From Elusimicrobiota bacterium (GTDB lineage: Bacteria; Elusimicrobiota; Elusimicrobia; F11), in assembly GCA_044221725.1 (NCBI GenBank), contig JBGAON010000003.1, positions 32,001-96,000 on the forward strand: DNA of 64,000 nt, read 5' to 3'. The translations under genes and the position numbers were made by a program. Below are positions 221-36,470 of this stretch, piece by piece (positions within the stretch are counted from its first letter, which is position 1; each line of letters starts with the position of its first letter). The notes under the pieces are model-generated. The model was given only the letters and a program-made list of their open reading frames with translations. It was not told the DNA's origin and did not search any database.

Positions 221-1191
221 TGCCGAAACGGGCAACGGTGGGTATTGATATTGGGGGGACAAAAACGCTTTTCGCACTGTTTGACGAGAAATTCGGACTC
301 ATCGAGGAAATAAAAGAGAAAACGCGCGCCACAAAAGGCGAAAAGAATTTTTCGGCGATGTTGGCCGACGCGCTGGGCGCTCTCGTTAAGACCGCAAAGA
401 AAAAAGACCTCGCTATTTTGGCGGTGGGGGTTGGTTGCACCGGCACCGTTGACACGAAGACGGGCGAAGTCAAAAAGAGTCCGCACATTCCTTTCCTTGA
501 GAAATATCCGCTGAAGAGCCGGTTGAACAAACTGGCGAGCGCCAACGTTCGTATCGTGAACGATGTTCAGGCGGGTTTGTATGGCGAGCATCAGCTCGGC
601 ATCGCGAAAGGGCTTCGGCACGTCATTGGTATCTTTATCGGCACCGGAATTGGCGGCGCCATCATTATCGACGGGCATCTGCATCTCGGAGCCAAAGGAC
701 ACGCTGGGAATATTGGTCATTATTCGACTCATTCGCCACCCGCGGGTGAAATACCCGGTAACAGCATCTTAAATGAGGTCGTGAGCCGACCCGCGATTGC
801 GGCCGAAGCGGCGATGTTGGCCTCTCGGCATCAGGCGCCAAATTTTCTCAAGAATGTCGGCACGGACGTTTCGAAGATTACGAGTGCCGATTTGGCGCTG
901 GCCATTGCGCAAGGGGACAAGAACATAGAACAGGTGATTCGGAATCGATCACGTCTTGTTGGCAATGCGCTTTCCAATATCGTGGATTTCCTTAATCCCG
1001 AGATGATTGTGTTGGGGGGCGGACTCGTCGAAGCAATGCCTGCGTTAATTCGCCAAGAAGTGGAAGCCGGCGTCAAAGCAACATCCACCAAAGAAGCGTT
1101 CGATGGATTGGAAATTGCTGTGGCCAAGCTTGGGAATCACGCGGTCACAACCGGCGCCGCAAAGCTGGCGAGTGACGTGGCGCTGAACTGA
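220..1191 (+). CDS. ROK family sugar kinase (glucokinase-like)
   Basis: DIGGTK phosphate loop, GTGIGGA and GNIGH motifs. Confidence 0.9.
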   Translation: MPKRATVGIDIGGTKTLFALFDEKFGLIEEIKEKTRATKGEKNFSAMLADALGALVKTAKKKDLAILAVGVGCTGTVDTKTGEVKKSPHIPFLEKYPLKSRLNKLASANVRIVNDVQAGLYGEHQLGIAKGLRHVIGIFIGTGIGGAIIIDGHLHLGAKGHAGNIGHYSTHSPPAGEIPGNSILNEVVSRPAIAAEAAMLASRHQAPNFLKNVGTDVSKITSADLALAIAQGDKNIEQVIRNRSRLVGNALSNIVDFLNPEMIVLGGGLVEAMPALIRQEVEAGVKATSTKEAFDGLEIAVAKLGNHAVTTGAAKLASDVALN

Positions 1192-1208
1192 TTCTCGAAA
1201 AGAACGTA
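1185..1208 (+). promoter_or_regulatory. ECF promoter GAAC-N16-CGTA
   Basis: GAAC tgattctcgaaaagaa CGTA, 37 nt upstream of the ATG at 1246. Confidence 0.75.
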
Positions 1209-1245
1209 TTAAATTTGGACGAAAATCTTTTTTGGGAGCCATGTT

Positions 1246-1845
1246 ATGCGACACCAACACACCGTTGTATCCGATACGCCCGGACCTCAGGCGTCAAAAA
1301 AAGAAAGCGTGAGTGGCGTTCGCCCGCTTTCGAGAAGCGGTGAGCCTCTCGAGGCTCCTTTCGCGAACGGGATACGACTGGAGGAAGCGATCACGATCGG
1401 ACGACCTCTCCCCGAGCTGTATTCTTACTGGCGCGATTTTCGAAATCTCCCCAGCTTTTGCAAGTACCTTGAGCACGTCGAGTTCATCGACGAAAAGCGG
1501 TCGCGTTGGACCGCGATCGGGCCCGCCGACAAACCGTTGACATGGGAAGCGGCCATTATAGAGGAGACGCCGAACGAGCTCATTAGCTGGCGCTCGTTCG
1601 AAGGATCCTCTTTTCAGAACGCTGGCTCGGTTCGTTTCAAAAAGGCGCCCGCGGATCGCGGGACAGAAATCAATCTTACGTTTGCTTATTCTCCGCCGGC
1701 CGGCCCGTTGGGTTCGCTGGTTGCAAAACTCAGTGGGAAGGATCCGGCGTACATTTTGCACGAGGAATTGCGGCGGTTTAAGCAACTGATGGAAACGGGT
1801 GAAATTCCAACGACCGACGGGCAGCCGTCGCTCGAGAACCAATAG
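1246..1845 (+). CDS. SRPBCC/polyketide-cyclase-like protein
   Basis: YWRDFRNLP, ISWRS, GSVRF and KQLMETGEIPT motifs; usual partner of the downstream Zn dehydrogenase. Confidence 0.85.
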   Translation: MRHQHTVVSDTPGPQASKKESVSGVRPLSRSGEPLEAPFANGIRLEEAITIGRPLPELYSYWRDFRNLPSFCKYLEHVEFIDEKRSRWTAIGPADKPLTWEAAIIEETPNELISWRSFEGSSFQNAGSVRFKKAPADRGTEINLTFAYSPPAGPLGSLVAKLSGKDPAYILHEELRRFKQLMETGEIPTTDGQPSLENQ

Positions 1846-1854
1846 GGGAAATGT

Positions 1855-3033
1855 ATGCGCGCCACGTGTTGGTACGGGAAAAAAGACATGCGATCGGTTC
1901 GAACGACCGATCCAAAAATATTGAATCCTCGGGATGCCATCATCCGTGTGACGTTGACCGCCATCTGCGGATCCGATCTGCATTTGTATAACGCGAAGAT
2001 CCCGACCTTAAAGAAGGGCGATATTCTCGGTCACGAATTTATGGGAGAAGTGGTGGAAGTTGGATCGGCGATCAAAAATTTAAATATTGGTGATCGCGTG
2101 GTGATCCCGTTTCATATCTCGTGCGGCGCCTGTTTCTTCTGCAAGCACGAATTGTATTCGCTTTGCGACAATTCAAATCCGAACATGGTGATGGAAGAAG
2201 CGATGTACGGCCACGGAAACGCGGCCGCTTTTGGATACGCGCACATGTACGGAGGCTACGCCGGTGGCCAAGCGGAATACGTGCGCGTCCCGTTTGCGGA
2301 TGTGGGAGCACTGAGGATTCCGTCTGGAGTTCCGGATGAAAAGGTTTTGTTTCTTTCGGACATTTTCCCGACCGGTTTTATGGCGGCCGAGAATTGCAAC
2401 ATTCAGCCGGGGGATACGGTTGCCGTGTGGGGATGCGGACCCGTCGGGCAATTTGCGATTCGAAGCGCGTACTTGCTCGGTGCGGAGCGCGTGATTGCTA
2501 TTGATAACGTGCCCGAACGATTGGCGATGGCCAAAGATTACGGTCGCGCTAATATTTTGAATCACGACGATGTTGACATTCAAGATGCGCTGCTCGAGAT
2601 GACGGGTGGACGCGGCCCGGATGCGTGCATCGACGCGGTCGGCATGGAAGGGCACGGTGACAGCGGCGTTGGTGGGGCCTATGATGCCATTAAGAGTGCC
2701 GTGAAACTCGAAACCGATCGGCCGTACGCGCTGAGGCAAGCGATTCAAGCCTGCCGAAGCGGCGGGACGGTGTCGGTGCCCGGTGTTTATGGCGGGTTTA
2801 TCGATAAATTCCCGTTCGGCGCAATTTTTTCAAAATCGCTCACTATCAAATCCGGGCAAACCCACGTGCACCGTTACATGAAAGGTTTGTTGGATTTGGT
2901 GCTCGAAGGAAAAATCGATCCGAGTTTTGTGATCACGCGCCGCGTGGCTCTTTCGGAAGCTCCGGACGCGTACAAAAGATTTAACGATAAGGAACCCGGC
3001 TGGACAAAAGTCGTGCTCGTTCCGAACCATTGA
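1855..3033 (+). CDS. Zn-dependent alcohol/formaldehyde dehydrogenase (MDR family)
   Basis: [11 protein letters not shown], structural Zn Cys cluster CGACFFC...C, and GCGPVG. Confidence 0.92.
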
Positions 3034-3065
3034 GAATTTACGAATCAAAAAAACTAGGAGGCCTT

Positions 3066-3371
3066 ATGAAAAAGTTATTTGCTGCCGCAACGATGGGTGT
3101 GTTTCTCACCGGAGCAGTCCCTTCGCTCCACGCGAACCACTGGGACAAAAATCCCCAAGAACGGCAAAAGCACATGAACGACAAAATCGAAAAGATGACG
3201 AAGGAATTTAATCTTACGCCGGATCAGCAATCGAAAGTCCGAGCGGCTATGCAAAACAAGATGGAAAAAATGGAATCTGCCGAGCGGGAGTTTCATAACG
3301 AAGTAAAAGGCGTCTTAAACGCGGATCAAATGAAAAAATTCGATGAGAAAATGGAAGAGAAAATGAAATAA
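3066..3371 (+). CDS. Small secreted Spy/CpxP-like helical protein
   Basis: SD AGGAGG before ATG 3066; signal peptide; LTPDQ and LNADQ (LTXXQ-like) motifs. Confidence 0.6.
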   Translation: MKKLFAAATMGVFLTGAVPSLHANHWDKNPQERQKHMNDKIEKMTKEFNLTPDQQSKVRAAMQNKMEKMESAEREFHNEVKGVLNADQMKKFDEKMEEKMK

Positions 3372-3377
3372 AAGTCC

Positions 3378-3830
3378 GTGGAAAAGGACAAGGTTCCGAT
3401 TTCAAAGGCGGGGGAGTTTCTGCTGGACGAATGCCGGATGGTGTTGCCCGGTATTCAGGCTCTGTTTGGGTTTCAACTTGTCGCGGTGTTTAATAACCGG
3501 TTTAACTCGGTTCTGACGCATGCCCAACAGCTCATCCATTATTGTTCAATCGCACTGGTGGCCACGGCCGTGGCGCTGGTGATGGCGCCCGCTGCGTACC
3601 ATCGACAAACGCACATAAATGAGGTCACCGAGAAATTCCTTGTTGTCGCTAGCCGGTTGCTTTTGTTGAGCATGGGGCCGCTCATGATGGGCATTTCATT
3701 GGATTTTTATTTGATCGGCGTTACGATTTTCGAAAACCAAGCGCTCAGTGTTGTTTGTTCGGTGTTGCTGTTTTTTGTGTTCGTCGCGTTATGGTTTGTA
3801 TTGCCGCGATGGCGGAAAGGTCCGACGTAA
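3378..3830 (+). CDS. DUF6328-like membrane protein
   Basis: LLDECRMVLPGIQALFGFQL and PAAYHR motifs; about 4 TM helices. Confidence 0.7.
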   Translation: MEKDKVPISKAGEFLLDECRMVLPGIQALFGFQLVAVFNNRFNSVLTHAQQLIHYCSIALVATAVALVMAPAAYHRQTHINEVTEKFLVVASRLLLLSMGPLMMGISLDFYLIGVTIFENQALSVVCSVLLFFVFVALWFVLPRWRKGPT

Positions 3831-3889: not shown

Positions 3890-4993
3890 TTAGCGCGACA
3901 TTTCTGACGCGTTAATAAATTTCGGTTTGTCGACCGGTGGCAGTTTCTTCTTTTGCGATGGTTCGGCGGACGGCTTTTCCGGAATGTCCCGCAACGAAAT
4001 CTTTTTGCCGGTTTTAGCCGCTTCGTATATGGCGCGTATGATTTTCACGTCGTTCAAACCTTCTTGGCCCGACGGCTCCGGTTCTTGGTTTTTAAGAATG
4101 CAGTCCGAGAAATAAATGAGTTCGGCCGCGAATTGGTCGTGTTTGCCGAATTTTTTGCGCGTGGTCTTTTCGTTTATCGTGAGCTCGTAGGCCAACGGTT
4201 CCGCGTACTCGTACGAGGGATTCATTCGCAGGGACCCTTTGGTTCCCACGATCTCAAAAGCGCCGGTATCGCTCGCACCGAAACTGCTGATGAAGGTGGC
4301 GAAGCGGTCTGCGGGAAAGCGCAGCAAAACGCTGGTCATTTCATCCACTTCTTTAAAGCGCGAATATTTGCCGCCCGTTGAAAAAGCCTGCACCTCGAGC
4401 GGCTCGTCGCGGAACAGATATCGTGCTGCGTTCACGCAATAAACGCCAAGATCCCAAACGGATCCGCCTCCGAGACCGGCTTTCAGTCGGATATCTCCTT
4501 CTTTGACCTGTCGCGAAAAAAGCGAACCGAAAAAGCGAACGTCGCCGAGTTTTCCGTTCTTCACGAGTTTGATGGCTTCGAGGTTGGCTTCGTCAAAATG
4601 CAAACGGTAAGCGATCATGAGTTTTACTTTGTTTTTCTTGGCGGCCGCGATCATGTCACGGCATTCTTTTTCGCTGGTGGCCATCGGCTTTTCGCATAAC
4701 ACGTGCAATCCCGCATCGGCTGCTGCAATCGCGTATGGGGCGTGCAGGGAATTTGGCAGAGCGATGTAGACCGCATCGGCCACACCGGATTTCAGAAATG
4801 TGTCGTAGTGGTCGTAATCCGTAACGTTTGGAACGCGATACTTTTTGCCAAGCAACTCTTGCTTTTTCGCGTTGCCCGAAATGAGCGCGGTCAAGCGGGA
4901 GTTTTTTGCGTGTTTAAAACTTGGAAGCACGGCCGCCTGCGCGATGTAGCCGAGTCCCACCACGCCGTAACGGATGACGTTGGTAGATGCCAT
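3890..4993 (-). CDS. Gfo/Idh/MocA oxidoreductase (glucose-fructose oxidoreductase-like)
   Basis: GLGYIA Rossmann motif, LCEKPM, and GGGSVWDLGVY. Confidence 0.9.
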   Translation of the reverse strand: MASTNVIRYGVVGLGYIAQAAVLPSFKHAKNSRLTALISGNAKKQELLGKKYRVPNVTDYDHYDTFLKSGVADAVYIALPNSLHAPYAIAAADAGLHVLCEKPMATSEKECRDMIAAAKKNKVKLMIAYRLHFDEANLEAIKLVKNGKLGDVRFFGSLFSRQVKEGDIRLKAGLGGGSVWDLGVYCVNAARYLFRDEPLEVQAFSTGGKYSRFKEVDEMTSVLLRFPADRFATFISSFGASDTGAFEIVGTKGSLRMNPSYEYAEPLAYELTINEKTTRKKFGKHDQFAAELIYFSDCILKNQEPEPSGQEGLNDVKIIRAIYEAAKTGKKISLRDIPEKPSAEPSQKKKLPPVDKPKFINASEMSR

Positions 4994-5169
4994 TATTTTT
5001 TTCGGGGGACTTTCGCCCCGGACTTCCGTGCTTCGGACAGCCCGATGGCAATGGCTTGTTTCCGGTTCTTAACTTTTTTGCCCGAGCGACCGGATTTGAG
5101 TTTGCCCTCTTTGTACTCGTGCATCACGCGTTCCACTTTTTTTCCGGCCTTTTTTCCGTATCTCGCCAT
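4993..5169 (-). CDS. 58-aa basic DUF6496-like protein (not in the ORF track)
   Basis: MARYGKKAGKKVERVMHEYKEGKLKSGRSGKKVKNRKQAIAIGLSEARKSGAKVPRKK; SD GAGGAGG; TAATG coupling to the Gfo gene. Confidence 0.85.
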   Translation of the reverse strand: MARYGKKAGKKVERVMHEYKEGKLKSGRSGKKVKNRKQAIAIGLSEARKSGAKVPRKK

Positions 5170-5201: not shown

Positions 5202-5254
5202 TACGCGCCGGGTTTAAAAAAGTTTATTTCCAACTCTTTATACGGTAACGCGTA
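5202..5254. promoter_or_regulatory. Divergent pair of ECF promoters (one-mismatch variants)
   Basis: Minus strand AAAC-N16-CGTA (5225-5202); plus strand CAAC-N16-CGTA (5231-5254), 8 nt before ATG 5263. Confidence 0.6.
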
Positions 5255-5262
5255 TCTATGGC

Positions 5263-6783
5263 ATGAGCACAGTTTGGGACGGCGTCCCGGTACCCCGATT
5301 TCCTTCTCTCCAGCAAGATGTTTCGGCCGACGTGTGCGTTGTTGGCTGCGGAATTGCTGGGCTGACCACCGCCTACCTGCTCCTGAAAGAAGGCAAGAGC
5401 GTCGTTCTCCTCGATGAGAAAAATCTCGGTCGCGGGGAAACGGGACTTACGAGCGCGCACCTGTCGAATGCGCTTGACGACCGGTATTACGCGCTTGAAA
5501 AGATTCACGGTGAACACGGAGCCAGACTGGCCGCCGAAAGCCACACCGCGGCCATCAACCGAATTGAACGGATCGCTCACGACGAAAATATTTCGTGTGA
5601 ATTCGCTCGTGTTGACGGTTATTTGTTCGCAGGGCGAAAAGAGCTGGAGCCGACATTGGAAGCAGAGTTCCACGCCGCGCGTCGCGCGGGAATATTTACC
5701 ATTGAGTGGGCCAACGCGGCGCCGTGGAAAGAATTTGACACCGGCAAATGTTTGCGGTTCCCCAACCAGGCGCAATTTCATCCGTTGAAATATTTGTTCG
5801 GGCTCGCGCAAACCGTAAAGAAAATGGGAGGACAGATTTACACGAATTCGCGTGCGGTGGAGTGTCACGGCGGCGCGTCGACGTCGGTGTTGTTAAAACA
5901 AGGCTCGATGGTACGGGCCAAAGCAATTGTTTTGGCCACGAATGTTCCCATCAACAACAGAGTCGCGATCCACACGAAACAAGTAGCGTACCGCACCTAT
6001 GTTATAGGTGTTCGAATTCCACACGGCAGTATTGAGCGCGCGCTCTATTGGGACAACGAAGATCCGTATCATTACGTCCGCTTGGAAAGCGACCCAAAAC
6101 ATTCCGCCGATGAGATTCTCATCGTGGGGGGAGAAGACCATCGAACCGGTGAGCCGGTGGACTACGAAAATCGATACGACCGCCTTGAAGCTTGGGCGCG
6201 CAGCCGTTTCCCGTTTGCGAAAGCGATCGAATACAAGTGGTCCGGCCAGATCATCGAGCCGGTGGATGGGCTTGCGTTCATCGGACGAAATCCGGCCGAT
6301 CATGACAACGTTTTTATCATCACCGGCGATTCAGGAAATGGCCTCACGCATGGCACGATCGGCGGAATGCTGATCACCGATCTCATTATGGAGCGCGAAA
6401 ATCCGTGGCGTGATCTTTACAACCCTTCGCGGCTGCCGCTTCACACGATCAAAGATTACGTGAAGCAGAACGCCGACGTTCTTCCGAAATACACGGAATG
6501 GGTGACGCCCGGAGAGATCAAATCCGAGTCTTATATCGAGCCCGGCACCGGAAAAATTATTCGCCGTGGCGCCCAAAAAATTGCCGCGTATCGTGACAAA
6601 GACGGCAAATTGCGTGAGCTCTCCGCGGTGTGTCCGCATCTGGGATGCATTGTCCACTGGAATTCCGCGGAACAAACGTGGGATTGTCCGTGCCACGGCT
6701 CTCGCTTCGATCCCGAAGGAACCGTTGTGAACGGTCCCGCCAACTCCAACCTTCACCCGATTCACGCCGAACTAAAAAAGTAA
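5263..6783 (+). CDS. FAD-dependent oxidoreductase with C-terminal Rieske [2Fe-2S] domain (YhfW-like)
   Basis: GCGIAG FAD motif; CPHLGC and CPCHGS Rieske boxes. Confidence 0.92.
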   Translation: MSTVWDGVPVPRFPSLQQDVSADVCVVGCGIAGLTTAYLLLKEGKSVVLLDEKNLGRGETGLTSAHLSNALDDRYYALEKIHGEHGARLAAESHTAAINRIERIAHDENISCEFARVDGYLFAGRKELEPTLEAEFHAARRAGIFTIEWANAAPWKEFDTGKCLRFPNQAQFHPLKYLFGLAQTVKKMGGQIYTNSRAVECHGGASTSVLLKQGSMVRAKAIVLATNVPINNRVAIHTKQVAYRTYVIGVRIPHGSIERALYWDNEDPYHYVRLESDPKHSADEILIVGGEDHRTGEPVDYENRYDRLEAWARSRFPFAKAIEYKWSGQIIEPVDGLAFIGRNPADHDNVFIITGDSGNGLTHGTIGGMLITDLIMERENPWRDLYNPSRLPLHTIKDYVKQNADVLPKYTEWVTPGEIKSESYIEPGTGKIIRRGAQKIAAYRDKDGKLRELSAVCPHLGCIVHWNSAEQTWDCPCHGSRFDPEGTVVNGPANSNLHPIHAELKK

Positions 6784-6816
6784 CCATTCGTTCGACCGGA
6801 GTGTCAGATCTTCGGT

Positions 6817-9239: not shown

Positions 9240-9263
9240 GAACCAAGCGGTTTCGCACTCGTA
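9240..9263 (+). promoter_or_regulatory. ECF promoter GAAC-N16-CGTA of ku
   Basis: GAAC caagcggtttcgcact CGTA, 8 nt before ATG 9272; no SD present. Confidence 0.8.
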
Positions 9264-9271
9264 ATAAAACC

Positions 9272-12753: not shown

Positions 12754-12762
12754 TTAAATTTT

Positions 12763-12818
12763 TACGCGGCTTCGTTTCAAAAGTTCTTGTTGAGAACCTT
12801 TTGTCCCAGCTTAACGTA
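12763..12818. promoter_or_regulatory. Divergent pair of ECF promoters (ligD / DUF748)
   Basis: Minus strand GAAC-N16-CGTA (12786-12763), 9 nt before ligD; plus strand GAAC-N17-CGTA (12794-12818), 9 nt before ATG 12828. Confidence 0.8.
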
Positions 12819-12827
12819 CCGAAATGT

Positions 12828-14606: not shown

Positions 14607-14663
14607 TACGCGGTATCACGAAAATGGTTCTAAACCGTTGAACTTTCAGAAATGACCATCGTA
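14607..14663. promoter_or_regulatory. Divergent pair of ECF promoters (OmpA / BON)
   Basis: Minus strand GAAC-N16-CGTA (14630-14607); plus strand GAAC-N16-CGTA (14640-14663). Confidence 0.8.
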
Positions 14664-17501: not shown

Positions 17502-17502
17502 G

Positions 17503-19751: not shown

Positions 19752-19759
19752 ATTACATA

Positions 19760-19784
19760 GACGTTCCAATCGATAAAAAGTGTC
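19760..19784 (-). promoter_or_regulatory. ECF promoter GACAC-N16-CGTC of tolC-macAB
   Basis: GACAC tttttatcgattggaa CGTC, 8 nt before ATG 19751. A second copy lies at 20362-20387. Confidence 0.65.
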
Positions 19785-19817
19785 AGATTTCTTTGACTTT
19801 AGGCAAAATGACGAACC

Positions 19818-23118: not shown

Positions 23119-23139
23119 TGCCAACATAGCCACCACCCA

Positions 23140-23196
23140 TACGGTGGCCGGCACGGAAAGTTCTGAGAATCCGAACCTATCCCAAGAAATTCCGTA
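23140..23196. promoter_or_regulatory. Divergent pair of ECF promoters (DUF5752-treT / glgX)
   Basis: Minus strand GAAC-N16-CGTA (23163-23140); plus strand GAAC-N16-CGTA (23173-23196). Confidence 0.8.
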
Positions 23197-28246: not shown

Positions 28247-28395
28247 CAGACCACGTTACGTCCTTGAATAAGCCGGACGAGAATCGCAATGATGGCCAGC
28301 ACAAGTAACACATGAATAAAACCACCCATCGTGTACGAGGACACCAGTCCCAACAGCCACAGTATTACGAGGACAACCGCAATTGTGTAAAGCAT
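28246..28395 (-). CDS. lmo0937-family 49-aa membrane protein (not in the ORF track)
   Basis: [62 protein letters not shown] coupling to treY. Confidence 0.88.
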
Positions 28396-28435: not shown

Positions 28436-28459
28436 TACGCTTAATGAGTGGGAAAGTTC
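28436..28459 (-). promoter_or_regulatory. ECF promoter GAAC-N16-CGTA of lmo0937-treY
   Basis: GAAC tttcccactcattaag CGTA, overlapping the end of treZ. Confidence 0.75.
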
Positions 28460-30312
28460 ATGGCAGTGAACAGAAATGATGAAGTGGACGGAAGATGCCA
28501 CTGGGTTTTGAACTGCGGTTTCTTGTCGGTGCCGCCGTAACGTCGATCTTCGCTCGACCAGGTTAAATGCCACGATTGGTTTTCCGGTGCGGCGATCAGC
28601 GGTTCGGAGCACGGGTCGAATATGAAGTCGGGCCCGAGATTCGTAACGAGCAATCGATCGCCGTGCTCGGAATCAAAAAATCGAATGAGAAACGCATGGG
28701 ATCCCAATACGGCTGTGTCCAATTGAAACCGGTCTTGGCGCTCGATCGCAGGGTCCGCTTTGCGCAGCGCGATCAGATCTTTGTGAAGCAGGTAAATATC
28801 TTTGTGGTCGTTCCGCTCGTTTAAGTTTAATTTTGCGGACCGGAACGTGCGTTCGTCGGTAGGTTTTGGGAACGCCCTCAATCGTTCGGGCGCCGCGTCG
28901 TCGATAAATTGCGTAACGAATTTTCGGCGTCCTTCGTTCACGGAATTCGCAAGGTCTCCCTGGTGATCGCAAAAAAACGGGAATGGGCTTGTGGCTCCAA
29001 ATTCTTGTCCCATAAAGATCAGTGGGGTCGTTGGTCCAAGAAAGAGCACCGCGGCCATCGCGCGGTAGGTTGCCGAACTTGTGAGCGCATGGATGCGATG
29101 GCCGCCCACGTCGATGGAAATCTGATCGTGGTTCTGCAGGTACGTGACGAAGGCCTCCGCCGGTTGGAACGTCACTGGTTTCCCGCGCGGTCCGTTCAAA
29201 AAGACCGAATGCTGCCCTTGGTACAAAAACATGTCTTTTGTTAACGAAGCGAATTCTTGTGGGGGGCCGGCAAAGTCCGAAAAATAGTTCTTGCGATTGC
29301 CCGTGAGCGCGACGCGCGCCGCGTGGTGAAAATCATCGTTCCAGACGCCATCCAACCCATACCCGCCTTCCTTGATGGAAGTAATGAGCCGAACGTCTTG
29401 CGTGTCGTTTTCGGCGATAAGAATCAGCGATTTCTCTGGCGCGACGGATCGCACGGCCTTCGAGATGTCGGCGAGAATATGAACCGGACTTTTGTCGTAA
29501 ATGTTCTGCGTAGCGTCGAGGCGAAGTCCGTCGAAATGGAATTCTCGGATCCAGTAGCACGCGTTCTGGATAAAAAAATTTCGAACGTGCTCGGAATTGG
29601 GGCCATCAAAATTGATCGAGTCTCCCCAATCGGTTGCTTTGTGTTTGACCATGTAGTCGTCGCTAAAGGAACCGAGGTAATTCCCGTCGGGGCCCAAGTG
29701 ATTGTAAACCACGTCCAAAATCACGCCCATCCCCAGACCGTGCGCCGCATCCACAAATTGCTTCACCGCATTCGGGTCGCCGTAGACGTGATAAGGCGCA
29801 AACATCCCAACGTTGTCGTAACCCCAGTTCCATCGCCCGGCGTTTTCATGCAACGGCATTATTTCGATTGTCGTGATCCCGAGTGTCTTTAATTCCTTTA
29901 GTTCTCTTTGTGCCGCCGCGAACGTGCCTTCCTGCGTGAAGGTGCCGATGTGCAGTTCGTAAATGATTTGGCCGTGCATGGACACACCGGACCATTGGTT
30001 GTCGCGCCATTGGTAGAAGGCCGGATCAATGACAACCGAGTCGCCATGGGGGCCCTCGGGCTGAAATCGCGAACACGGATCGGGTGTTTCTCCGTCACCG
30101 TTCAGTCTGTACCTGTAGCGCGTGCCCGCGCGGAGGTTTGTTACCACCGTTTGGAAATAACCATCGGATGACGGCGATAGCGGAACGATGGAGGAGGGCG
30201 GGTCCTTTAATACGAGGTCAACCGAGCGACATTTGGGGGCCCACACAAGAAATTGTGTGCCCTCGCGTTTGAAATTCGCACCGAGCCACAACTCTTGCTC
30301 CAATAATTTCAT
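28441..30312 (-). CDS. treZ: Malto-oligosyltrehalose trehalohydrolase
   Basis: PDPCSRFQPEGPHG, WGYD, DGLRLDA, IAEND and QNHDQI motifs. Confidence 0.93.
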   Translation of the reverse strand: MKLLEQELWLGANFKREGTQFLVWAPKCRSVDLVLKDPPSSIVPLSPSSDGYFQTVVTNLRAGTRYRYRLNGDGETPDPCSRFQPEGPHGDSVVIDPAFYQWRDNQWSGVSMHGQIIYELHIGTFTQEGTFAAAQRELKELKTLGITTIEIMPLHENAGRWNWGYDNVGMFAPYHVYGDPNAVKQFVDAAHGLGMGVILDVVYNHLGPDGNYLGSFSDDYMVKHKATDWGDSINFDGPNSEHVRNFFIQNACYWIREFHFDGLRLDATQNIYDKSPVHILADISKAVRSVAPEKSLILIAENDTQDVRLITSIKEGGYGLDGVWNDDFHHAARVALTGNRKNYFSDFAGPPQEFASLTKDMFLYQGQHSVFLNGPRGKPVTFQPAEAFVTYLQNHDQISIDVGGHRIHALTSSATYRAMAAVLFLGPTTPLIFMGQEFGATSPFPFFCDHQGDLANSVNEGRRKFVTQFIDDAAPERLRAFPKPTDERTFRSAKLNLNERNDHKDIYLLHKDLIALRKADPAIERQDRFQLDTAVLGSHAFLIRFFDSEHGDRLLVTNLGPDFIFDPCSEPLIAAPENQSWHLTWSSEDRRYGGTDKKPQFKTQWHLPSTSSFLFTAMNFPTH

Positions 30313-30320
30313 ACCCCCTA

Positions 30321-30378
30321 TACGGTTCAAAGTGATTCAAGTTCAAGTCCAATGAACTTTTCAGACGGAGGGTTCGTA
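30321..30378. promoter_or_regulatory. Divergent pair of ECF promoters (treZ / OM barrel operon)
   Basis: Minus strand GAAC-N16-CGTA (30344-30321), 8 nt before treZ; plus strand GAAC-N17-CGTA (30354-30378). Confidence 0.8.
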
Positions 30379-30416: not shown

Positions 30417-30992
30417 ATGAGCAGATCTCGGCAATTGTTGGGTTTGTTGGCTCTCGCACTGTTAGCGACCTGCCCGTCGCTTTCTCGAGCCGATGATGCA
30501 GATGGCAACTGGAGTGCTGTTTCTTTCGGTCCGCGCGCCACGTATTTCAAACCGAAAGATGGTGACGGCGTATGGAGTGGAGGGGCGCAATTAAGAATTC
30601 GTCCGTGGAGATTTCTGGGATTTGAAGGGTCCGTTGACTACCGCCGCGAAAAGTTTGAATCGACGCGCGTTGATGTGTACCCGGTCCAGGCCTCTGTTCT
30701 GGCCTACATCCTTCCAATGCGGTCGGTGGATATATTTCTTTTGGGCGGTGGAGGATGGTATTACACGCATGTCGATCGTCCGTCTCCCGCGGATGACGAA
30801 ACGAAACATCGGTTTGGTGCGCACGCCGGCGCCGGGGTCGACATCTATTTGTCCCGCGCGTGGTCCATCGATGGAACGTACCGATATATTTGGCTCGAGA
30901 AATTTAATTCAACCGACGACAGCAATCTTCTCGACAAAGAACTGGACGACAGAGGCAGTCAAGTCACAATCGGGTTAAATTATCACTTCTAA
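30417..30992 (+). CDS. Small outer-membrane beta-barrel protein
   Basis: Signal peptide; alternating amphipathic strands; C-terminal GLNYHF. Confidence 0.8.
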   Translation: MSRSRQLLGLLALALLATCPSLSRADDADGNWSAVSFGPRATYFKPKDGDGVWSGGAQLRIRPWRFLGFEGSVDYRREKFESTRVDVYPVQASVLAYILPMRSVDIFLLGGGGWYYTHVDRPSPADDETKHRFGAHAGAGVDIYLSRAWSIDGTYRYIWLEKFNSTDDSNLLDKELDDRGSQVTIGLNYHF

Positions 30993-30995
30993 ATA

Positions 30996-32696
30996 ATGGA
31001 ACAGTTACTCCATCAACTGGCACCCGGAAAGTCCAAAACTCTCCGGGTGCTTTTGATTGAAGACGATTTGGAAGATGCCGAATACGTTTTTCTAACGCTC
31101 TCTCCACACGACACCTTCGACATCAAGGTGTCGCACGCACAATCGCTCGAGGAAGCGCAAAAACTCATGTCGCCCGCCATCGACATCATTTTGTTGGATC
31201 TCTCGCTGCCGGGCAGTCGTGGGATCGAAACCTTTGAAAAGGTGAGCGAGTTTTCCGATAAAACGCCGATTCTCGTGATCACGGGTTTGAACGACGAACA
31301 AACGGCGAGTGAAACGCTGCGGCGCGGCGCGCAGGACTTTATCGTGAAAGGCCAGTTCAACCGCAATTCTCTTTTAAAAGCGATTCGTTTTGCGATTGAA
31401 CGAAACAAGTTGCGGATCGATCTCACGAATCTCACGCAAAAATTGAATACCGCGAATCAGCAGTTGGATCGGCTCGCCCACAACGATCATTTGACCGGGC
31501 TGTTGAACCGGCGTGGCCTCGAACAGGCGTTGTCGCGCGAAATTGCCTGGTCTCAGAGAAACGGTGGCAGTGTGATGGTGCTGCTCATCGATCTCGATGA
31601 CTTTAAACGGATTAACGATACGCTGGGCCACGCGGCCGGCGACAACGTTCTCAAAGAAATCGCACGGCGGATGCAAGGGCCGTTACGCATCACGGATTTT
31701 TCGGCGCGCATCGGCGGTGACGAGTTTCTTATTTTGTTGCCGGATACCGAGCCGGCCGAAGGTGTTCGGATCGCGGAGAAAGTTCGAAAAGCCATCTGCG
31801 ACGAGTTGTTCGTGGTCGGATCGACACGCCTGACGGTGACCGTCAGCGTTGGCGCAATACCAATTCCGGAGGGGACCACCTCCATTGACGATCTGCTGAT
31901 TGAAACGCACCACGCGCTTTATCAAAGCAAGCGCAGTGGCAAAAATAAGGTTAGTTTTGGCGGTGACGTCGCGCCGTTGAACGGTTCCGCGCCGGGGCCG
32001 TTGCAGACGCTGATAAAGGAAAAATCGCTGCGGGTCATGCTGCAGCCGATTATGAATCTCGAAAACAATCAACCGATGGGGTATGAATTTCTGTGCCAAT
32101 CGCTGGTTCCTTCCTGTGAAAAGCCCGAAGATTTTTTCCGGATGGCGCAGGACACGAACGTGGTGTCTCAGATTGATCAGTTGTGTCTGGCGAGCTGCAT
32201 CGAAGTGGCGGAGACCATACCACCAAAACTACAGCGGCACATTAATATTGCCACAACGACGCTCAGTGAATTCTCAATTCCAACGTTGATTGATCTTTTC
32301 CGAGATGCCCACCAGGGGGAAACCTATTGTTTGGAAATTAATCAGCATCAGGTTGTCGGAGACCCGTCGTATTTAATTCGCCCGCTTGAGCTTTTGAAAC
32401 AGGAAGAGTTTCTTATCGCGCTCGAAAACGTAAGTTTTGGCCAAAACAGCCTGGAAACGGTGATTCTGCTCGAACCCGATTATTTAAAGATCAGCCAGCA
32501 TTACATCACCGGTATTTCAAAAGATCCGGCCCGGTTACGATCGCTGAACCGTTTCTTGAAAGTGGCCGAAAGTCTCGGAACCGCGGTGATTGCGGTTGGT
32601 ATTGAGTCGCAAGAGGACATGAACGTTCTTAAATCAATGGGCGTGAAATTTGGACAAGGTTTTCACTGGGGCAAACCATTTTTGAATTTTCCTTAA
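30996..32696 (+). CDS. REC-GGDEF-(degenerate EAL) diguanylate cyclase
   Basis: Receiver DLSLP; intact GGDEF with RITD I-site. In the EAL domain, EAL reads EFL and DDFG reads ENVSFG. Confidence 0.88.
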   Translation: MEQLLHQLAPGKSKTLRVLLIEDDLEDAEYVFLTLSPHDTFDIKVSHAQSLEEAQKLMSPAIDIILLDLSLPGSRGIETFEKVSEFSDKTPILVITGLNDEQTASETLRRGAQDFIVKGQFNRNSLLKAIRFAIERNKLRIDLTNLTQKLNTANQQLDRLAHNDHLTGLLNRRGLEQALSREIAWSQRNGGSVMVLLIDLDDFKRINDTLGHAAGDNVLKEIARRMQGPLRITDFSARIGGDEFLILLPDTEPAEGVRIAEKVRKAICDELFVVGSTRLTVTVSVGAIPIPEGTTSIDDLLIETHHALYQSKRSGKNKVSFGGDVAPLNGSAPGPLQTLIKEKSLRVMLQPIMNLENNQPMGYEFLCQSLVPSCEKPEDFFRMAQDTNVVSQIDQLCLASCIEVAETIPPKLQRHINIATTTLSEFSIPTLIDLFRDAHQGETYCLEINQHQVVGDPSYLIRPLELLKQEEFLIALENVSFGQNSLETVILLEPDYLKISQHYITGISKDPARLRSLNRFLKVAESLGTAVIAVGIESQEDMNVLKSMGVKFGQGFHWGKPFLNFP

Positions 32697-32706: not shown

Positions 32707-33273
32707 ATGGCAAGCGATTCATTTGTGATCGATGTAAAAGCAATTCGGGACCGGGCCCGCAAACACATAGAAGATGGAGCGGTTACCGAGGGTTATCAAG
32801 GAAACCGTGACGTGGTACGAAGACTTTTGAACGAGGCGCTCGCCACGGAACTCGTGTGCGTGCTGCGCTACAAACGACATTACTTTATGGCCAAAGGCAT
32901 TCACGCGGAGGCAGTGGCGTCGGAATTTCAGGAGCACGCGGCCGAAGAACAGGCGCACGCCGACATGATTGCCGAACGCATCACCCAGTTGGACGGCGAG
33001 CCGGATTTCAATCCCGAGGGTCTTACCGCGCGCAGCCACTCGGAATACAAAGAGGGCACATCATTGACCGACATGCTCAAGGAAGATCTCGTGGCCGAAC
33101 GCATCGCGATCGATTCGTATCGCGAGATGATCAATTACATCGGCGCGAAAGATGCCACGACGCGGCGCATGCTTGAGGAAATTCTTGCCACCGAAGAAGA
33201 ACACGCGGATGACCTTGCGAAGCTTCTCCCGGCATCGGACAGCACGAACGGCAAGTCACCGGCCGAACTTTAA
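32707..33273 (+). CDS. Bacterioferritin/ferritin-like protein
   Basis: Di-iron E / EExxH / E / EEEH pattern: ATE, EEQAH, AE, TEEEH. Confidence 0.88.
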   Translation: MASDSFVIDVKAIRDRARKHIEDGAVTEGYQGNRDVVRRLLNEALATELVCVLRYKRHYFMAKGIHAEAVASEFQEHAAEEQAHADMIAERITQLDGEPDFNPEGLTARSHSEYKEGTSLTDMLKEDLVAERIAIDSYREMINYIGAKDATTRRMLEEILATEEEHADDLAKLLPASDSTNGKSPAEL

Positions 33274-33288
33274 CTTCTAAGGTTCGTA
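33265..33288 (+). promoter_or_regulatory. ECF promoter GAAC-N16-CGTA
   Basis: GAAC tttaacttctaaggtt CGTA, 32 nt before ATG 33321. Confidence 0.75.
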
Positions 33289-33320
33289 AAAAAATTAGAT
33301 TACTCTCATAGGAGGCGTGT

Positions 33321-33668
33321 ATGGAAGACATTGCAAAAGGGGCAGAAAAGAAAATCAACGAAGGCGCCGGGCGGGTGCATGAAGGCATCGAAAAGGCGCG
33401 GCGAAACACCGTTGATATGATCGAAAAGAACACCTCGGCCGATACCGATGAAATCATTCGTTCCGTTCGCGAGAGAGGGCAAGAATATCTTAATCAGGCG
33501 AAGCAAAAAGGCGAAGACCTTTTGAATGCGGTGAGCACCGGCGGTCGCGCCAGCATGAAAAACTTGGCCAATTATATTGAGAGCCGTCCGGCCCAAGCGG
33601 TCGCCATTGCTGCGTGCGTGGGACTCGTGGCCGGGTTGCTTCTCGCGTCGTCCAGCAAAGAGGACTAG
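33321..33668 (+). CDS. ElaB/YqjD (DUF883)-like tail-anchored protein
   Basis: Helical hydrophilic body and C-terminal YIESRP.QAVAIAA.VG...G.LL TM. Confidence 0.75.
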   Translation: MEDIAKGAEKKINEGAGRVHEGIEKARRNTVDMIEKNTSADTDEIIRSVRERGQEYLNQAKQKGEDLLNAVSTGGRASMKNLANYIESRPAQAVAIAACVGLVAGLLLASSSKED

Positions 33669-34048
33669 TGAACAATTCCCAAACACAAAAGCCTCCCAAC
33701 TTCGCCAAAGCGTTGCTCGGTCTCATCAAAGACCACGTTGAACTGGCGACGTTGGAATGTGTTTATGAGAAAGAAGCAGGGCAGCGCCGCGCTGTCGGAT
33801 TGGCAGCGGGTGTTGCTCTGCTCTTCTTTTCGTTTCTTTTCCTGCAGCTGTGCATCGTGGGGCTGTTGCACCGAATGGGACTCGGATTTGCTTCGATTGG
33901 GTTGATGGGCTGCTTGTTTTATGGGGGGATCGCTTATTACCTTCTAAAAAGGGCGTTGGCGCGTGACCCAGGCGTTGGGAAACCTTTTCAGTCGTCAATT
34001 CAACAGGTCAAACGGAGTTTTGAATGGATCGAGAGTCGTTTCTCTTAA
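33668..34048 (+). CDS. YqjE/holin-like two-TM protein
   Basis: GTG overlaps the previous TAG; HVELATLE motif; two TMs; YqjD-E gene order. Confidence 0.65.
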   Translation: MNNSQTQKPPNFAKALLGLIKDHVELATLECVYEKEAGQRRAVGLAAGVALLFFSFLFLQLCIVGLLHRMGLGFASIGLMGCLFYGGIAYYLLKRALARDPGVGKPFQSSIQQVKRSFEWIESRFS

Positions 34049-34239
34049 AACGCGACTTGATTGTACGGCGGATGGACGATGATCGCCTGCTCCTGTCGCA
34101 ACATCAATTCGGATTGTTGCGTGCGCTAAAGCCGTTGGCTGTTCCTTACCTTCTAAAAAGCGTCGCCACTGTCGCCGGCATTCCGCTGGTGCAATATTTG
34201 TTGCGCAAGAAAGGTTTCTTCAACCACCGAAACAACTGA
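34024..34239 (+). CDS. Small hypothetical protein in the YqjK position
   Basis: Third overlapping ORF of the YqjDE-like operon. Confidence 0.45.
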   Translation: MDRESFLLKRDLIVRRMDDDRLLLSQHQFGLLRALKPLAVPYLLKSVATVAGIPLVQYLLRKKGFFNHRNN

Positions 34240-34255
34240 CGATTGGATTTATTGG

Positions 34256-35263
34256 CTAACGAAAGTCGCGCGAGATGTCCTGCAGCAACGGTTCCGGAAC
34301 ATCGCCCATCAGCGTAAAGTAATTTTTACCTTTTTCCCAATGATAGACATTCCCCGAACCGGTCGCTTGAAGCGGGGATCCGTGTGCGGATAGTGCATTG
34401 CCGGTAGTGTTGGATGGAATCTTAACGGGCACCGGTGTCTGAAACAACGACAATGGTAGAACGCCGTCGGTGTACCGTACGTGTTTCACGGTTTTGCCGG
34501 TGATGTCCAAATAACTGATGCTTTCAAACGAAAAACCACCGGCCAATTTTTTCGAAAAGAGTTGCGCATCCTTTGCGCGCTGCGCATCGGCGGGGGAAAT
34601 CGTGTGCGTGGTATCAAGCGCTGCGTTGGTTTCAACTTCGGTAAGAAATAAATTGTTCGATGCCGACGTGTTCGGCACAAAGTCGGTGAAACGCGTTAAC
34701 GAGCCGCTTTGTGAATCATCGGTCGAATACTGCTTCGTTTCCAATACCACGTGCGTCTGCTGGTCCACGCGCATCTGATGGTGCGGTTTGCCAGGGATGA
34801 CCGGTGCCCAGTCCACAAGCCAGGTCGAGCGGCCCAACAACTTTTCTCCGGGTTTTACCGAGACCTTGTAGTTTTCAAGCAACAAACTTTTCTGATCTCT
34901 TGATTGCAGCGATTTTTGTGGGAACGTCGTGAAATAATTCTGAACAACCTGATCGTTTTTCAATAGTTGGGTCTCTTCTTTCACGCTGTTCGATAGCACC
35001 ACACGGTCGACAGATCCATCCGGACGCAAGAACTCCATGCGGTATTTGTCCGGAGGCTGGAAAAAAATGTTCACGTCTTCGGCCTTTGCTCCTTTGTCGG
35101 TCCACATACTGATCATAAGGTGACCTTTGAACGGCTTTTGCGGACCGCTGAGAATCATGTCGACCGTTTGAGCAGCGTCGGGCGCATCGCCGGCCGAAAC
35201 GAAAGCCAGCGTGGCAGAGACAAAACAGAAAGCAGCGGTGATCGTTTTGCGGATTTTAGACAT
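34256..35263 (-). CDS. RseB/MucB-like periplasmic sigma-E regulatory protein
   Basis: Signal peptide; LolA-like N-terminal domain; C-terminal YTDG...LSLFQ and LMGDVP motifs; third gene after sigma and anti-sigma. Confidence 0.8.
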   Translation of the reverse strand: MSKIRKTITAAFCFVSATLAFVSAGDAPDAAQTVDMILSGPQKPFKGHLMISMWTDKGAKAEDVNIFFQPPDKYRMEFLRPDGSVDRVVLSNSVKEETQLLKNDQVVQNYFTTFPQKSLQSRDQKSLLLENYKVSVKPGEKLLGRSTWLVDWAPVIPGKPHHQMRVDQQTHVVLETKQYSTDDSQSGSLTRFTDFVPNTSASNNLFLTEVETNAALDTTHTISPADAQRAKDAQLFSKKLAGGFSFESISYLDITGKTVKHVRYTDGVLPLSLFQTPVPVKIPSNTTGNALSAHGSPLQATGSGNVYHWEKGKNYFTLMGDVPEPLLQDISRDFR

Positions 35264-35732
35264 GGCTCTTTACGTGCGCCGTCTGTTCCGACGCCGCGAG
35301 CACACGTTGGTGAAGAAGGGGGCTGGTTTGTCCCATGTTGTGAGCCGAGATAAGCGAGTCCATTGGAATAAACTCCGCGTGTTGGACCTGATAGAGGTGG
35401 AAAACGCCCGCGAAAACGGCGGCCGTGGCCAACGCGCCACCCAACGCAAACTGTTGGGATAACTTGGACCACGACGACCACTGGAAGAAATGAAAACGTT
35501 GGGCGTCTTGTTGCTCGAGAAGTCGGCGTTCCAGAGATTCAAGGAAGTACGTGGGCGCGGCAACCTGAGGAAGATCGGCCACCAAATCTTTCGATTTCTT
35601 GATCCTTTCAAGCTCTTCGCGCCATTCGCTGGAGGTTGCCAACTGTTGTTGGACCATTCGAAGTTCCGAGCCGTTCAGCTCACGGTCCAAAAAGGCCGAC
35701 AATAATTCCGATTCTTTTGTGCCTACCACCAT
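35256..35732 (-). CDS. RseA-like anti-sigma factor (non-zinc ASD plus TM)
   Basis: ELLSAFLDREL N-terminus, one TM, no HxxxCxxC motif. Confidence 0.8.
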   Translation of the reverse strand: MVVGTKESELLSAFLDRELNGSELRMVQQQLATSSEWREELERIKKSKDLVADLPQVAAPTYFLESLERRLLEQQDAQRFHFFQWSSWSKLSQQFALGGALATAAVFAGVFHLYQVQHAEFIPMDSLISAHNMGQTSPLLHQRVLAASEQTAHVKSHV

Positions 35733-35749
35733 ACTCCTATCCCTCCAGA

Positions 35750-36307
35750 TTAAGTTGCAACACCCAGTTGCATTTTTTCAAAAGCTTTTCGTAACAAAAC
35801 ACGTCCTTGGAAGATTCGCGACCGCACGGTTCCAATGGGACAATCCAATATTTCTGCGATCTGTTCATACGAATAACGCTCAACATCGCACAACACAACG
35901 ACCGAACGGTACAGCATGGGCAGAGATTCGAGCGCCTTCTGAATTAGCGTGTTGGCCTCTTTCTGGTCCAATTCTTCGGCGGGCGAAGGATCGTTCCCCG
36001 GAATAATGTTTTCCCAGGACACATCCTCGACAGGAGACGGCCCATCCATCGACACCGTATGCTTTCGGTCGTACTTCCGCATACTGTCAATGAAGATATT
36101 TTTGAGAATTCGGTTCAACCACGGCTGAAAAGGACGCGAAGGATCAAACTTATCAATGTGCCTTAAAACGTGCGTAAAAGCCTCCTGTACGAGGTCACGT
36201 GCGTCTTGATCATTGCCACTCAATCGATAAGCGAAACTGTAAGCCTTATCAGCGTGCCGTCGAACCAATTCCCCTATTTCGGGAGTCTTGGCGTCAAAGG
36301 CGCCCAT
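35750..36307 (-). CDS. ECF sigma factor (RpoE-like), candidate general-stress sigma
   Basis: DARDLVQEAF, WLNRILKN, SYEQIAEIL and GTVRSRI motifs; preceded by the island-wide promoter motif. Confidence 0.92.
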   Translation of the reverse strand: MGAFDAKTPEIGELVRRHADKAYSFAYRLSGNDQDARDLVQEAFTHVLRHIDKFDPSRPFQPWLNRILKNIFIDSMRKYDRKHTVSMDGPSPVEDVSWENIIPGNDPSPAEELDQKEANTLIQKALESLPMLYRSVVVLCDVERYSYEQIAEILDCPIGTVRSRIFQGRVLLRKAFEKMQLGVAT

Positions 36308-36334
36308 GTTTACCTCTCATGGTGTCGATGTGAA

Positions 36335-36358
36335 TACGGACAGGTCGCAAAAAAGTTC
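36335..36358 (-). promoter_or_regulatory. Putative autoregulatory ECF promoter GAAC-N16-CGTA
   Basis: GAAC ttttttgcgacctgtc CGTA, 27 nt before the sigma ATG. Confidence 0.8.
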
Positions 36359-36446
36359 ACCTCAGCTAATTTATTCTTCTGTGGGCCAATTTGGTGGGTT
36401 TTCCGTCGAGGAACAGCAAAACCAATTGAATTCTAACAAAAGGTTG

Positions 36447-36470
36447 CAACTAACCGTCAAGCGCCACGTA
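36447..36470 (+). promoter_or_regulatory. ECF promoter variant CAAC-N16-CGTA of the SOD operon
   Basis: CAAC taaccgtcaagcgcca CGTA, 28 nt before ATG 36499. Confidence 0.6.

Follow-up and report, generated by a model that had tools for sequence, protein, structure and literature searches.

A putative extracytoplasmic function sigma factor regulon clustered around its own regulatory operon in an Elusimicrobiota bacterium

Introduction

The DNA analysed in this study, referred to as the window, is a stretch of 64,000 nucleotides from the genome of an uncultured Elusimicrobiota bacterium (genome G000, contig C5, positions 32001-96000). The genome is 94% complete and comprises 2.82 Mb in five contigs. 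A 37-kb island in the window holds a three-gene operon encoding an extracytoplasmic function (ECF) sigma factor, a single-pass anti-sigma factor and a secreted protein with an RseB/MucB fold. On both sides of the operon a short motif, GAAC-N16/17-CGTA, recurs just upstream of genes that include those for trehalose synthesis and non-homologous end joining (NHEJ). A preliminary description of this DNA proposed that the motif is an ECF promoter and the island a self-contained general stress regulon under an RpoE-RseA-RseB-type regulator. We examined these proposals using family models, a structure model, motif statistics and comparison with related genomes.

The GC content is uniform across the island (0.51-0.54). 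Metagenomes of bioreactor, wastewater and sludge contain the stretch, as do four wastewater metatranscriptome runs from one study, whose contigs are 100% identical and of low depth.

Results

The sigma factor operon

The three genes of the operon are listed in Table 1. ECF (group 4) sigma-70 factors possess only regions 2 and 4 and are about 180-200 amino acids (aa) long. The focal sigma factor, which we call type A, is an ECF sigma factor by size and by domains: it carries PF04542 and PF08281 and scores 108 bits on TIGR02937 (cut-off 42.9). On the narrower NCBIfam models its scores all lie below the cut-offs, with 156 bits for actinobacterial SigE, 136 for SigW (cut-off 209) and 86.4 for RpoE (TIGR02939, cut-off 236). 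When region 4 was examined alone, the closest match was region 4 of E. coli sigma-E (PDB 2h27), and the recognition helix is nearly identical. The genome encodes ten genes of the sigma-70 family. A search for the sigma factor over a wider set of genome contigs returned one unrelated match of 32% identity, in a metagenome-assembled genome of the Verrucomicrobiae.

The anti-sigma gene overlaps or abuts the sigma gene. Pfam matched zf-HC2 in 13/15 members of the anti-sigma family and gave no other domain. The zinc ligands are lost in the focal protein and its closest relatives, and distant relatives retain H-x3-C-x2-C (alignment A2). The periplasmic tail is conserved and contains the motif IPLEPLLAAH-x-RY. 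The best solved relative of the family profile is RsiW (E 3.3e-6). Neither Pfam nor the profile search against solved structures found an RseA N-terminal domain in the family.

The third protein, P0002, was modelled with AlphaFold (predicted local distance difference test score 83.2, predicted template modelling score 0.79). The top Foldseek matches were E. coli RseB (2v42, E 1.7e-13, both domains) and Pseudomonas MucB (6in8), and LolA proteins ranked lower. A PDB sequence search with this protein was empty and its Pfam score was sub-threshold; PF03888 is carried by 2/3 homologues found. The model and the Foldseek matches thus bear out the earlier assignment of an RseB/MucB-fold protein after the anti-sigma factor, and by fold and position it is an RseB/MucB-type protein at +2. 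RseC is absent at +3, where the next gene is a convergent small open reading frame (ORF), 34024-34239 (+). P0002 relatives were found in 52/151 genomes of the class. A sigma homologue (48-71% identical) adjoins the relative in 29/29 loci fetched from other genomes, which follow the gene order of the focal operon, and BLAST detected an anti-sigma gene between the two in 18/29.

One M50 site-2 protease is encoded in the genome. The site-1 protease PrsW (PF13367) was not found in this 94%-complete assembly, and the search for PhyR (PF22029) gave only a sub-threshold match of 24.8 bits, in another ECF sigma factor of the genome. The description of the operon as RpoE-RseA-RseB-type therefore holds in part. 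It holds for the RseB/MucB fold and the sigma-E-like region 4, and fails for the low score on the RpoE model, the zf-HC2/RsiW-like anti-sigma factor, the missing RseC and the -10 element CGTA. As predicted from its sequence, the module is a hybrid of RpoE/RseB-like features and features of the zinc-binding anti-sigma (ZAS)/SigW type.

Number and placement of the motif

GAAC-N16/17-CGTA has 16 exact matches in the window against 3.65 expected from dinucleotide-preserving shuffles (sd 2.09, largest 9), and 0/100 shuffles reached 16. The 13 exact sites of the preliminary description were all found in place, 8-40 nt 5' of a start codon on the same strand. Its count of exactly 13 is right for upstream regions and too low for the whole window, where three more exact matches lie inside genes: 6457-6481 (-), 12379-12402 (+) and 15396-15420 (+). 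Using a hand-adjusted list of start codons, positions 5-45 nt upstream of a start make up 2.1% of the first 40 kb, and 13/16 matches fall there (binomial P ~8e-20). Enrichment upstream of starts is thus established for the window. In the whole genome there are 228 exact matches; the 32-kb bin of the cluster has 14 and every other bin has at most 7. 58/228 (25%) lie outside deep coding DNA, compared with 11-22% for nine other -35 cores. The consensus of the 13 sites is GAAC-Y-T-T-(T/C) ... CGTA-(A/T)(A/T).

Four one-mismatch sites had been proposed in addition, and all four exist. One-mismatch matches are frequent by chance (77 found against 55.6 expected for the N16 form). Three of the four, before the DUF6496, FAD/Rieske and superoxide dismutase (SOD) genes, are backed by a genome of the same genus, G003; the fourth, at 6769 (+), is not.

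Pfam and NCBIfam confirmed the gene names that had been given to the targets, namely Ku, LigD, TreT, TreY (TIGR02401, 982 bits), TreZ (TIGR02402, 611 bits, over the cut-off), a GlgX-type enzyme, three BON domains, ferritin-like, DUF883/ElaB-like and SOD. The predicted promoters and the genes that follow them are collected in Table 1.

Table 1. Operon genes, predicted promoters and promoter arrangements of the island (positions in the window).
Feature	Position	Strand	Description or genes that follow
ECF sigma factor (type A)	35750..36307	-	185 aa; Pfam Sigma70_r2 and r4_2
Single-pass anti-sigma factor	35256..35732	-	158 aa; zf-HC2-type N-domain, one transmembrane helix, ~45-aa periplasmic tail
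Secreted RseB/MucB-fold protein (P0002)	34256..35263	-	335 aa; signal peptide
Putative autoregulatory promoter, GAACTTTTTTGCGACCTGTCCGTA	36335..36358	-	27 nt before the sigma start codon
Predicted promoter	1185..1208	+	SRPBCC 1246-1845, zinc-dependent alcohol dehydrogenase 1855-3033, LTXXQ/Metal_resist-like 3030-3371, DUF6328 3378-3830
One-mismatch promoter, AAAC...CGTA	5202-5225	-	DUF6496 4993-5169, GFO/IDH/MocA oxidoreductase 3890-4993
One-mismatch promoter, CAAC...CGTA	5231-5254	+	FAD/Rieske oxidoreductase 5263-6783
Weak candidate, GAAC...CGTT	6769..6792	+	UPF0164 6817-7758, GH18-like 7755-9230; no comparative support
Predicted promoter	9240..9263	+	ku 9272-10096; ATG 8 nt past CGTA
Predicted promoter	12763..12786	-	ligD 10294-12753; ATG 9 nt past CGTA
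Predicted promoter	12794..12818	+	DUF748 protein 12828-13904; ATG 9 nt past CGTA
Predicted promoter	14607..14630	-	OmpA-family/Gly-zipper protein 13909-14574
Predicted promoter	14640..14663	+	Triple-BON (OsmY-like) protein, end 15492
Predicted promoter	23140..23163	-	DUF5752 22426-23127, TreT 21219-22442
Predicted promoter	23173..23196	+	GlgX-type debranching enzyme 23226-25448
Predicted promoter	28436..28459	-	Overlaps treZ 3' end; DUF5670 28246-28395, treY 25358-28246
Predicted promoter	30321..30344	-	treZ 28441-30312; ATG 8 nt past CGTA
Predicted promoter, divergent partner of treZ promoter	30354..30378	+	Outer-membrane protein (OMP) beta-barrel 30417-30992, response regulator-GGDEF-EAL 30996-32696, ferritin-like 32707-33273
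Predicted promoter	33265..33288	+	DUF883/ElaB-like 33321-33668, holin-X-like membrane protein (end 34048), small ORF 34024-34239
One-mismatch promoter, CAAC...CGTA	36447..36470	+	SOD 36499-37155, response regulator-GGDEF 37170-38060, PPK2 38008-38868
Divergent promoter pairs	12763-12818, 14607-14663, 23140-23196, 30321-30378, 5202-5254		Inverted repeat AAGTTC-N-GAACYT
Short-distance starts	9263-9272 (ku), 12753-12763 (ligD), 12818-12828 (DUF748 gene), 30312-30321 (treZ), 23127-23140 (DUF5752 gene), 5254-5263 (FAD/Rieske gene)		No ribosome-binding site

The promoter of the sigma factor gene and its relatives

A position weight matrix (PWM) was trained on the window's own sites. The site upstream of the sigma gene, 36335-36358 (-), has the top PWM score genome-wide. 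When the 220 nt upstream of each sigma relative were scanned with the PWM, the top site scored at least 12 in 24/29 loci; random 240-nt pieces of this genome (400 in all) gave a 99th percentile of 10.4. The loci without such a site are L040, L041, L052, L033 and L051. A maximum-likelihood tree divides the sigma factors into three groups: type A, type B and single copies of other families. The type A clade (support 85/84) comprises the focal sigma factor and those of G003, G005, G009, G011, G004, G006 and G070, and 6/7 of these relatives have the upstream site. Type B comprises a second copy of this genome, on contig C1, and copies from G004, G007 and G009.

In G003, seven sites precede orthologues of the set genes. 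Six are exact (DUF6496, FAD/Rieske, ferritin, ElaB-like, treY and treZ2) and one has one mismatch (SOD, preceded by AAACTTTT...CGTA). Six of the seven supported genes lie in the window and treZ2 lies on contig C3. The genes treY, treZ and SOD again flank the sigma operon in G003, a genome that has a close sigma factor, an RseB-like gene, TreZ and 23 matches to the strict pattern GAACYTT-N13/14-CGTA against 10 for the reversed control. Four other genomes (G001, G002, G008 and G010) have 0-3 strict matches and are without the RseB-like gene, TreZ and any close homologue of the sigma factor (the best are 35-38% identical, E 1e-23 to 1e-25). Co-occurrence within the family is a hint and not a test, because kin are not independent. 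Ku was of no use as a comparative probe: ku was found in 2/40 relatives, both without the upstream site, because ku follows another gene there.

The recurrence of the site in 24/29 loci and the seven G003 sites make the promoter of the adjacent, autoregulated ECF sigma factor the best reading of the motif, as the preliminary description had it. Both traits expected of ECF sigma factors are predicted here: a co-transcribed anti-sigma gene, and an autoregulatory promoter whose -35 element contains AAC and whose -10 element contains CGT. We consider it likely, from the sequence comparisons above, that GAAC(Y)TTT-N12/13-CGTA is the promoter read by the type A sigma factor, which would be held at the membrane by the anti-sigma factor and an RseB-like shield and would fire a predicted stress regulon. 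The promoter, like the module, looks like a hybrid, with an RpoE-type -35 element (GAACTTT) and the -10 element CGTA as with SigW-type sigma factors. The -35 element fits the sigma-E-like region 4; on the region 2 (-10) side the hybrid reading draws on whole-protein scores.

Paralogous modules

A second module is encoded on contig C1 (locus L064, C1:137000-143000). This operon encodes a DegS-like protease (Trypsin_2 and PDZ), the type B sigma factor (C1:139786-140301), an anti-sigma factor and a MucB_RseB protein that passes Pfam's cut-off. Upstream of the type B gene is GAAG-N16-CGTA, one base off the island motif. Considering the gene together with its three orthologues, the upstream element is GAAG or GAAT, N16/17 and CGTA (AGTA in one orthologue). 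The -35 box may have drifted after duplication, insulating types A and B from each other.

Given this likeness, the type B sigma factor might read the island promoters wholly or partly, and the island would then be an envelope-stress arm. The type B and focal sigma factors are 53% identical, the type B motif keeps the -10 element and the spacing with a single base different in the -35 core, and the C1 module has the more canonical content in its Trypsin_2 and PDZ protease and its above-cut-off MucB_RseB protein. The envelope proteins of the island (OmpA, OMP, BON and DUF748) also suit this explanation. However, the exact GAAC form lies before the type A gene and 6/7 of its relatives and not before type B genes, and the island clusters around the type A operon both here and in G003. 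We therefore regard type B as an unlikely reader of these promoters and prefer the type A sigma factor.

Type C sigma factors, which are more distant paralogues, adjoin an RseB-like gene in genomes of other families (G040:C13:3071-3571, G034:C1:16368-16901 and G027:C36:17593-18087; loci L107-L179), and none was found in this genome. They are 34-40% identical to the focal sigma factor and 47-52% identical within the type. The type C sigma factor's own promoter and 20-30 others have the form GAACTTTTT-N-TCGTA, and the start codon in these regulons is mostly exactly 8 nt past CGTA. The motif precedes recA (G040 and G034), mutS, comEC, ComM-like, ERCC4, DEAD helicase and GIY-YIG genes, as well as many ORF6N, IS200-type transposase, HNH, XRE and toxin-antitoxin genes. 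Judged by these genes, the type C set resembles an ECF-driven regulon for DNA repair, competence or mobile elements.

Extent of the regulon outside the window

At a PWM score of at least 16 there are 25 sites outside deep coding DNA, where 1.9 are expected from the coding rate, and 12 of them are in the window. At a score of at least 14 the figures are 38 sites, 8.6 expected and 14 in the window. The regulon is therefore not self-contained as had been proposed: 12/25 sites at the higher threshold are in the window and the rest are elsewhere, including a second island on C3. About half of a predicted set of roughly 25-30 promoters would thus lie outside the island. Scattered single sites precede hemerythrin, cupin, AI-2E transporter, SDR and DoxX genes, and one precedes a HAD hydrolase gene just left of the window.

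The second island, at about 659.8-665.7 kb of C3, has a back-to-back promoter pair. One arm, CAACTTTTT-N-CGTA, precedes another ECF sigma gene (L002:7947-8621, 224 aa). Other C3 sites precede genes for a DUF2383 protein, a methyltransferase and a 128-aa ORF, and the neighbours include genes for a glycogen-debranching enzyme, a second TreZ-like protein (treZ2), a hybrid histidine kinase and a response regulator. Outside the window the highest PWM score belongs to L002:7868-7891 (-) or C3:659868-659891, a site that no convincing ORF follows. A transcript starting there would enter the 3' end of the single-domain response-regulator gene L002:7339-7773 (+) in antisense orientation and may be a small or antisense RNA; Rfam gave no match at this promoter.

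The C3 sigma factor could itself be the real driver of the regulon or a co-driver. Its near-consensus site is one arm of the back-to-back pair whose other arm scores highest of all sites outside the window, and its gene is among motif-bearing DUF2383 and methyltransferase genes, near the debranching enzyme and TreZ-like genes and beside the hybrid kinase and response regulator. Yet its identity to the focal sigma factor is just 27%, a search of the motif-rich genome G009 gave no orthologue that reached E 1e-25, and its relatives in G008 and G010 are without an upstream site, G008 having 0 strict motif matches. A driving role for it thus seems improbable. The C3 sigma factor is more likely a target than a driver, and a cascade from the focal to the C3 sigma factor fits better.

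Promoter layout

The divergent promoters stand back to back in four exact pairs and one near pair, with GAAC boxes 5-9 nt apart, an arrangement also seen on C3 and in G003. At each pair two polymerases would share ~60 bp, in competition or in cooperation. Paired GAAC boxes (AAGTTC-N5-9-GAACYT) could also be an inverted-repeat operator for a dimeric transcription factor and not -35 boxes at all; such repeats form the five pairs of the window, two more on C3 and several in G003. Against this, 5/13 exact sites are unpaired and still show CGTA after 16/17 nt and at a constant distance from the start codon, the gap between the halves varies from 3 to 9 nt, and the motif fits ECF promoter architecture and the sigma factor's own upstream region. 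An operator is, in our view, very improbable, and we continue to treat the GAAC boxes as -35 elements.

The distance from CGTA to the start codon is bimodal. It is 8-12 nt in 6/17 window sites and 24-40 nt in the others, which have a GGAGG-type ribosome site. The mRNAs of the six short-distance genes are probably leaderless, because the start codon follows CGTA by 8-12 nt with no ribosome-binding site.

Other genes in and near the island

The motif-driven units include two response-regulator cyclic di-GMP (c-di-GMP) enzymes (30996-32696 and 37170-38060) and PPK2. Through them the regulon may influence signalling by c-di-GMP and polyphosphate.

The middle of the island, 15519-20393, contains genes for a MacB-type ABC efflux pump, an HlyD-like adaptor and a TolC-like outer-membrane efflux protein (-). 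They adjoin the second ECF sigma gene of the window, 19818-20393 (+), and the whole efflux and sigma block is without the motif. A third ECF sigma gene lies near 43802-44287 (-). Just right of the island, 38924-40637 (-) encodes an enzyme of the MbnB/TglH/ChrH family, which modifies ribosomally synthesized and post-translationally modified peptides (E 2.6e-110), and its DUF2063 partner.

Discussion

A predicted ECF regulon that is real and clustered with its regulator in the middle is well supported by the motif statistics and the recurrence of the upstream site. We propose the following mechanism. The co-transcribed single-pass anti-sigma factor would sequester the sigma factor at the membrane, and the RseB-like protein would shield its short periplasmic tail. 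Release would begin with a signal from the periplasm or envelope that dislodges the RseB-like protein. The anti-sigma factor would then undergo two successive cuts, the first by a site-1 protease (possibly the DegS-like enzyme whose gene adjoins the paralogous module) and the second by the single M50 site-2 protease. Once free, the sigma factor would boost its own expression and switch on about 25-30 promoters, of which half lie in the 37-kb island. These island promoters would drive three trehalose routes (TreT, and TreY/TreZ with GlgX) and NHEJ (Ku and LigD). The OsmY-like BON, OmpA, OMP, ferritin-like and ElaB-like proteins, SOD, the c-di-GMP enzymes and PPK2 would be produced as well. Trehalose, NHEJ, OsmY-like, ElaB-like, ferritin-like, SOD, hemerythrin and PPK2 genes plausibly make up a desiccation, osmotic and oxidative protection set.

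Several points weigh against this reading or narrow it. The gene calls came from a crude home-made caller, and a PWM trained on window sites in combination with such calls favours window sites and makes the site figures rough. The strict pattern has 15 matches in this genome against 10 for the reversed control. Other genomes with a type A sigma factor are poor in strict matches (strict/reversed: G004 3/7, G005 2/18, G006 4/8 and G011 3/2), and the G004 sigma gene has no upstream site. The correlation between strict motif counts and the sigma factor across genomes is confounded and was downgraded as support: the highest counts, those of G040, G034 and G027 and probably that of G019, are owed to type C, another paralogue that uses the same motif. 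The type B motif is nearly the same, so cross-reading is possible. The genome also encodes a 276-aa group 2 sigma factor of the RpoS/RpoD-like kind (265 bits on the RpoS model, cut-off 379), and the focal sigma factor therefore need not be the sole stress sigma factor. In the metatranscriptome contigs, starts, strands and levels are unreadable, DNA carry-over is possible and some contigs span promoters. The proposed general-stress role is drawn from gene content and gene names only.

One further proposal reaches beyond the promoter assignment, and we offer it tentatively. The RseB-gated ECF module would have been duplicated, with one copy, beside the DegS-like protease, acting as an envelope-stress sensor and the other becoming a master switch for desiccation and general stress with a co-inherited island (trehalose, NHEJ, OsmY, ferritin and SOD). 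If this is true, it would add a third independent design to the general stress responses built on an ECF sigma factor, with sensing in the periplasm and not in the cytoplasm. Should the RseB-like protein be the sensor, a programme that protects the cytoplasm would respond to perturbation of the envelope or of lipids.

The analysis supplies a list of predicted targets, a promoter consensus and a switch made of three proteins. It indicates that the genes of a regulon can be grouped physically around the gene of their regulator, and that such a block can come and go as a whole among members of one genus. Closely related paralogous sigma factors appear to keep near-identical promoters yet control different gene sets, and many targets appear leaderless.

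Comparison with known systems

The papers cited below are represented by those portions of their text that were available to us. A titles-level search for ECF sigma factors or stress responses naming Elusimicrobia found no stress regulon of the phylum. Nor was this system described in the part of the print record covered by a search on ECF, ligD, trehalose and desiccation. A term search of the available text of the 2021 ECF re-classification turned up no group with GAACTTT and CGTA (PMC7826278). There, a separate RseB at +2 is described for ECF02 only.

The EcfG-NepR-PhyR system of Alphaproteobacteria (ECF15) resembles the island in its promoter, which is GGAAC-N16-CGTT in the portion consulted (PMC7083833) and GAAC-N16/17-CGTA here. 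The Sphingopyxis EcfG general stress regulon includes ku-ligD, and the overlap with the island extends to osmotic and oxidative protection genes (PMC7083833). The sigma factor is autoregulated there and predicted to be so here, with a second sigma factor as a likely target. The regulators differ: no PhyR was found here above threshold, and a membrane anti-sigma factor with a periplasmic partner is present instead of NepR. Control would be by proteolysis and periplasmic sensing, not by a cytoplasmic partner switch.

The SigW-RsiW system of B. subtilis (ECF245 in the 2021 classification) shares the -10 element CGTA(T), as given in the available text (PMC7826278). RsiW is the best solved relative of the anti-sigma factor, and the focal sigma factor obtains 136 bits on the SigW model, a score below the cut-off (209). 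The -35 element here is GAACTTT and not TGAAAC, PrsW was not found in the genome, and an RseB-like partner is present.

The closest parallel in gene order is ECF02, represented by RpoE-RseA-RseB(-RseC) of E. coli and AlgU-MucA-MucB of Pseudomonas. The view that RseA/RseB modules serve mainly in envelope stress, taken in the preliminary description, overlooks AlgU, which is critical for survival of desiccation and hyperosmolarity in P. fluorescens according to the passages available of a review (PMC8141521). Unlike ECF02, the focal sigma factor scores 86 against 236 bits on the RpoE model, RseC is missing at this locus, and the anti-sigma factor is zf-HC2/RsiW-like with a ~45-aa periplasmic tail and not of the RseA_N type. 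The operon is without a protease gene, the -10 element is CGTA where the ECF02 portion of the re-classification gives GTCT (PMC7826278), and the predicted regulon consists mostly of cytoplasmic protectants (trehalose, NHEJ, ferritin and SOD). Like ECF02, the island has an ECF sigma factor followed by a single-pass anti-sigma factor and an RseB/MucB-fold protein at +2, a region 4 closest to that of sigma-E, an M50 protease in the genome, and a -35 element, GAACTTT, that equals the ECF02 consensus as given there (PMC7826278).

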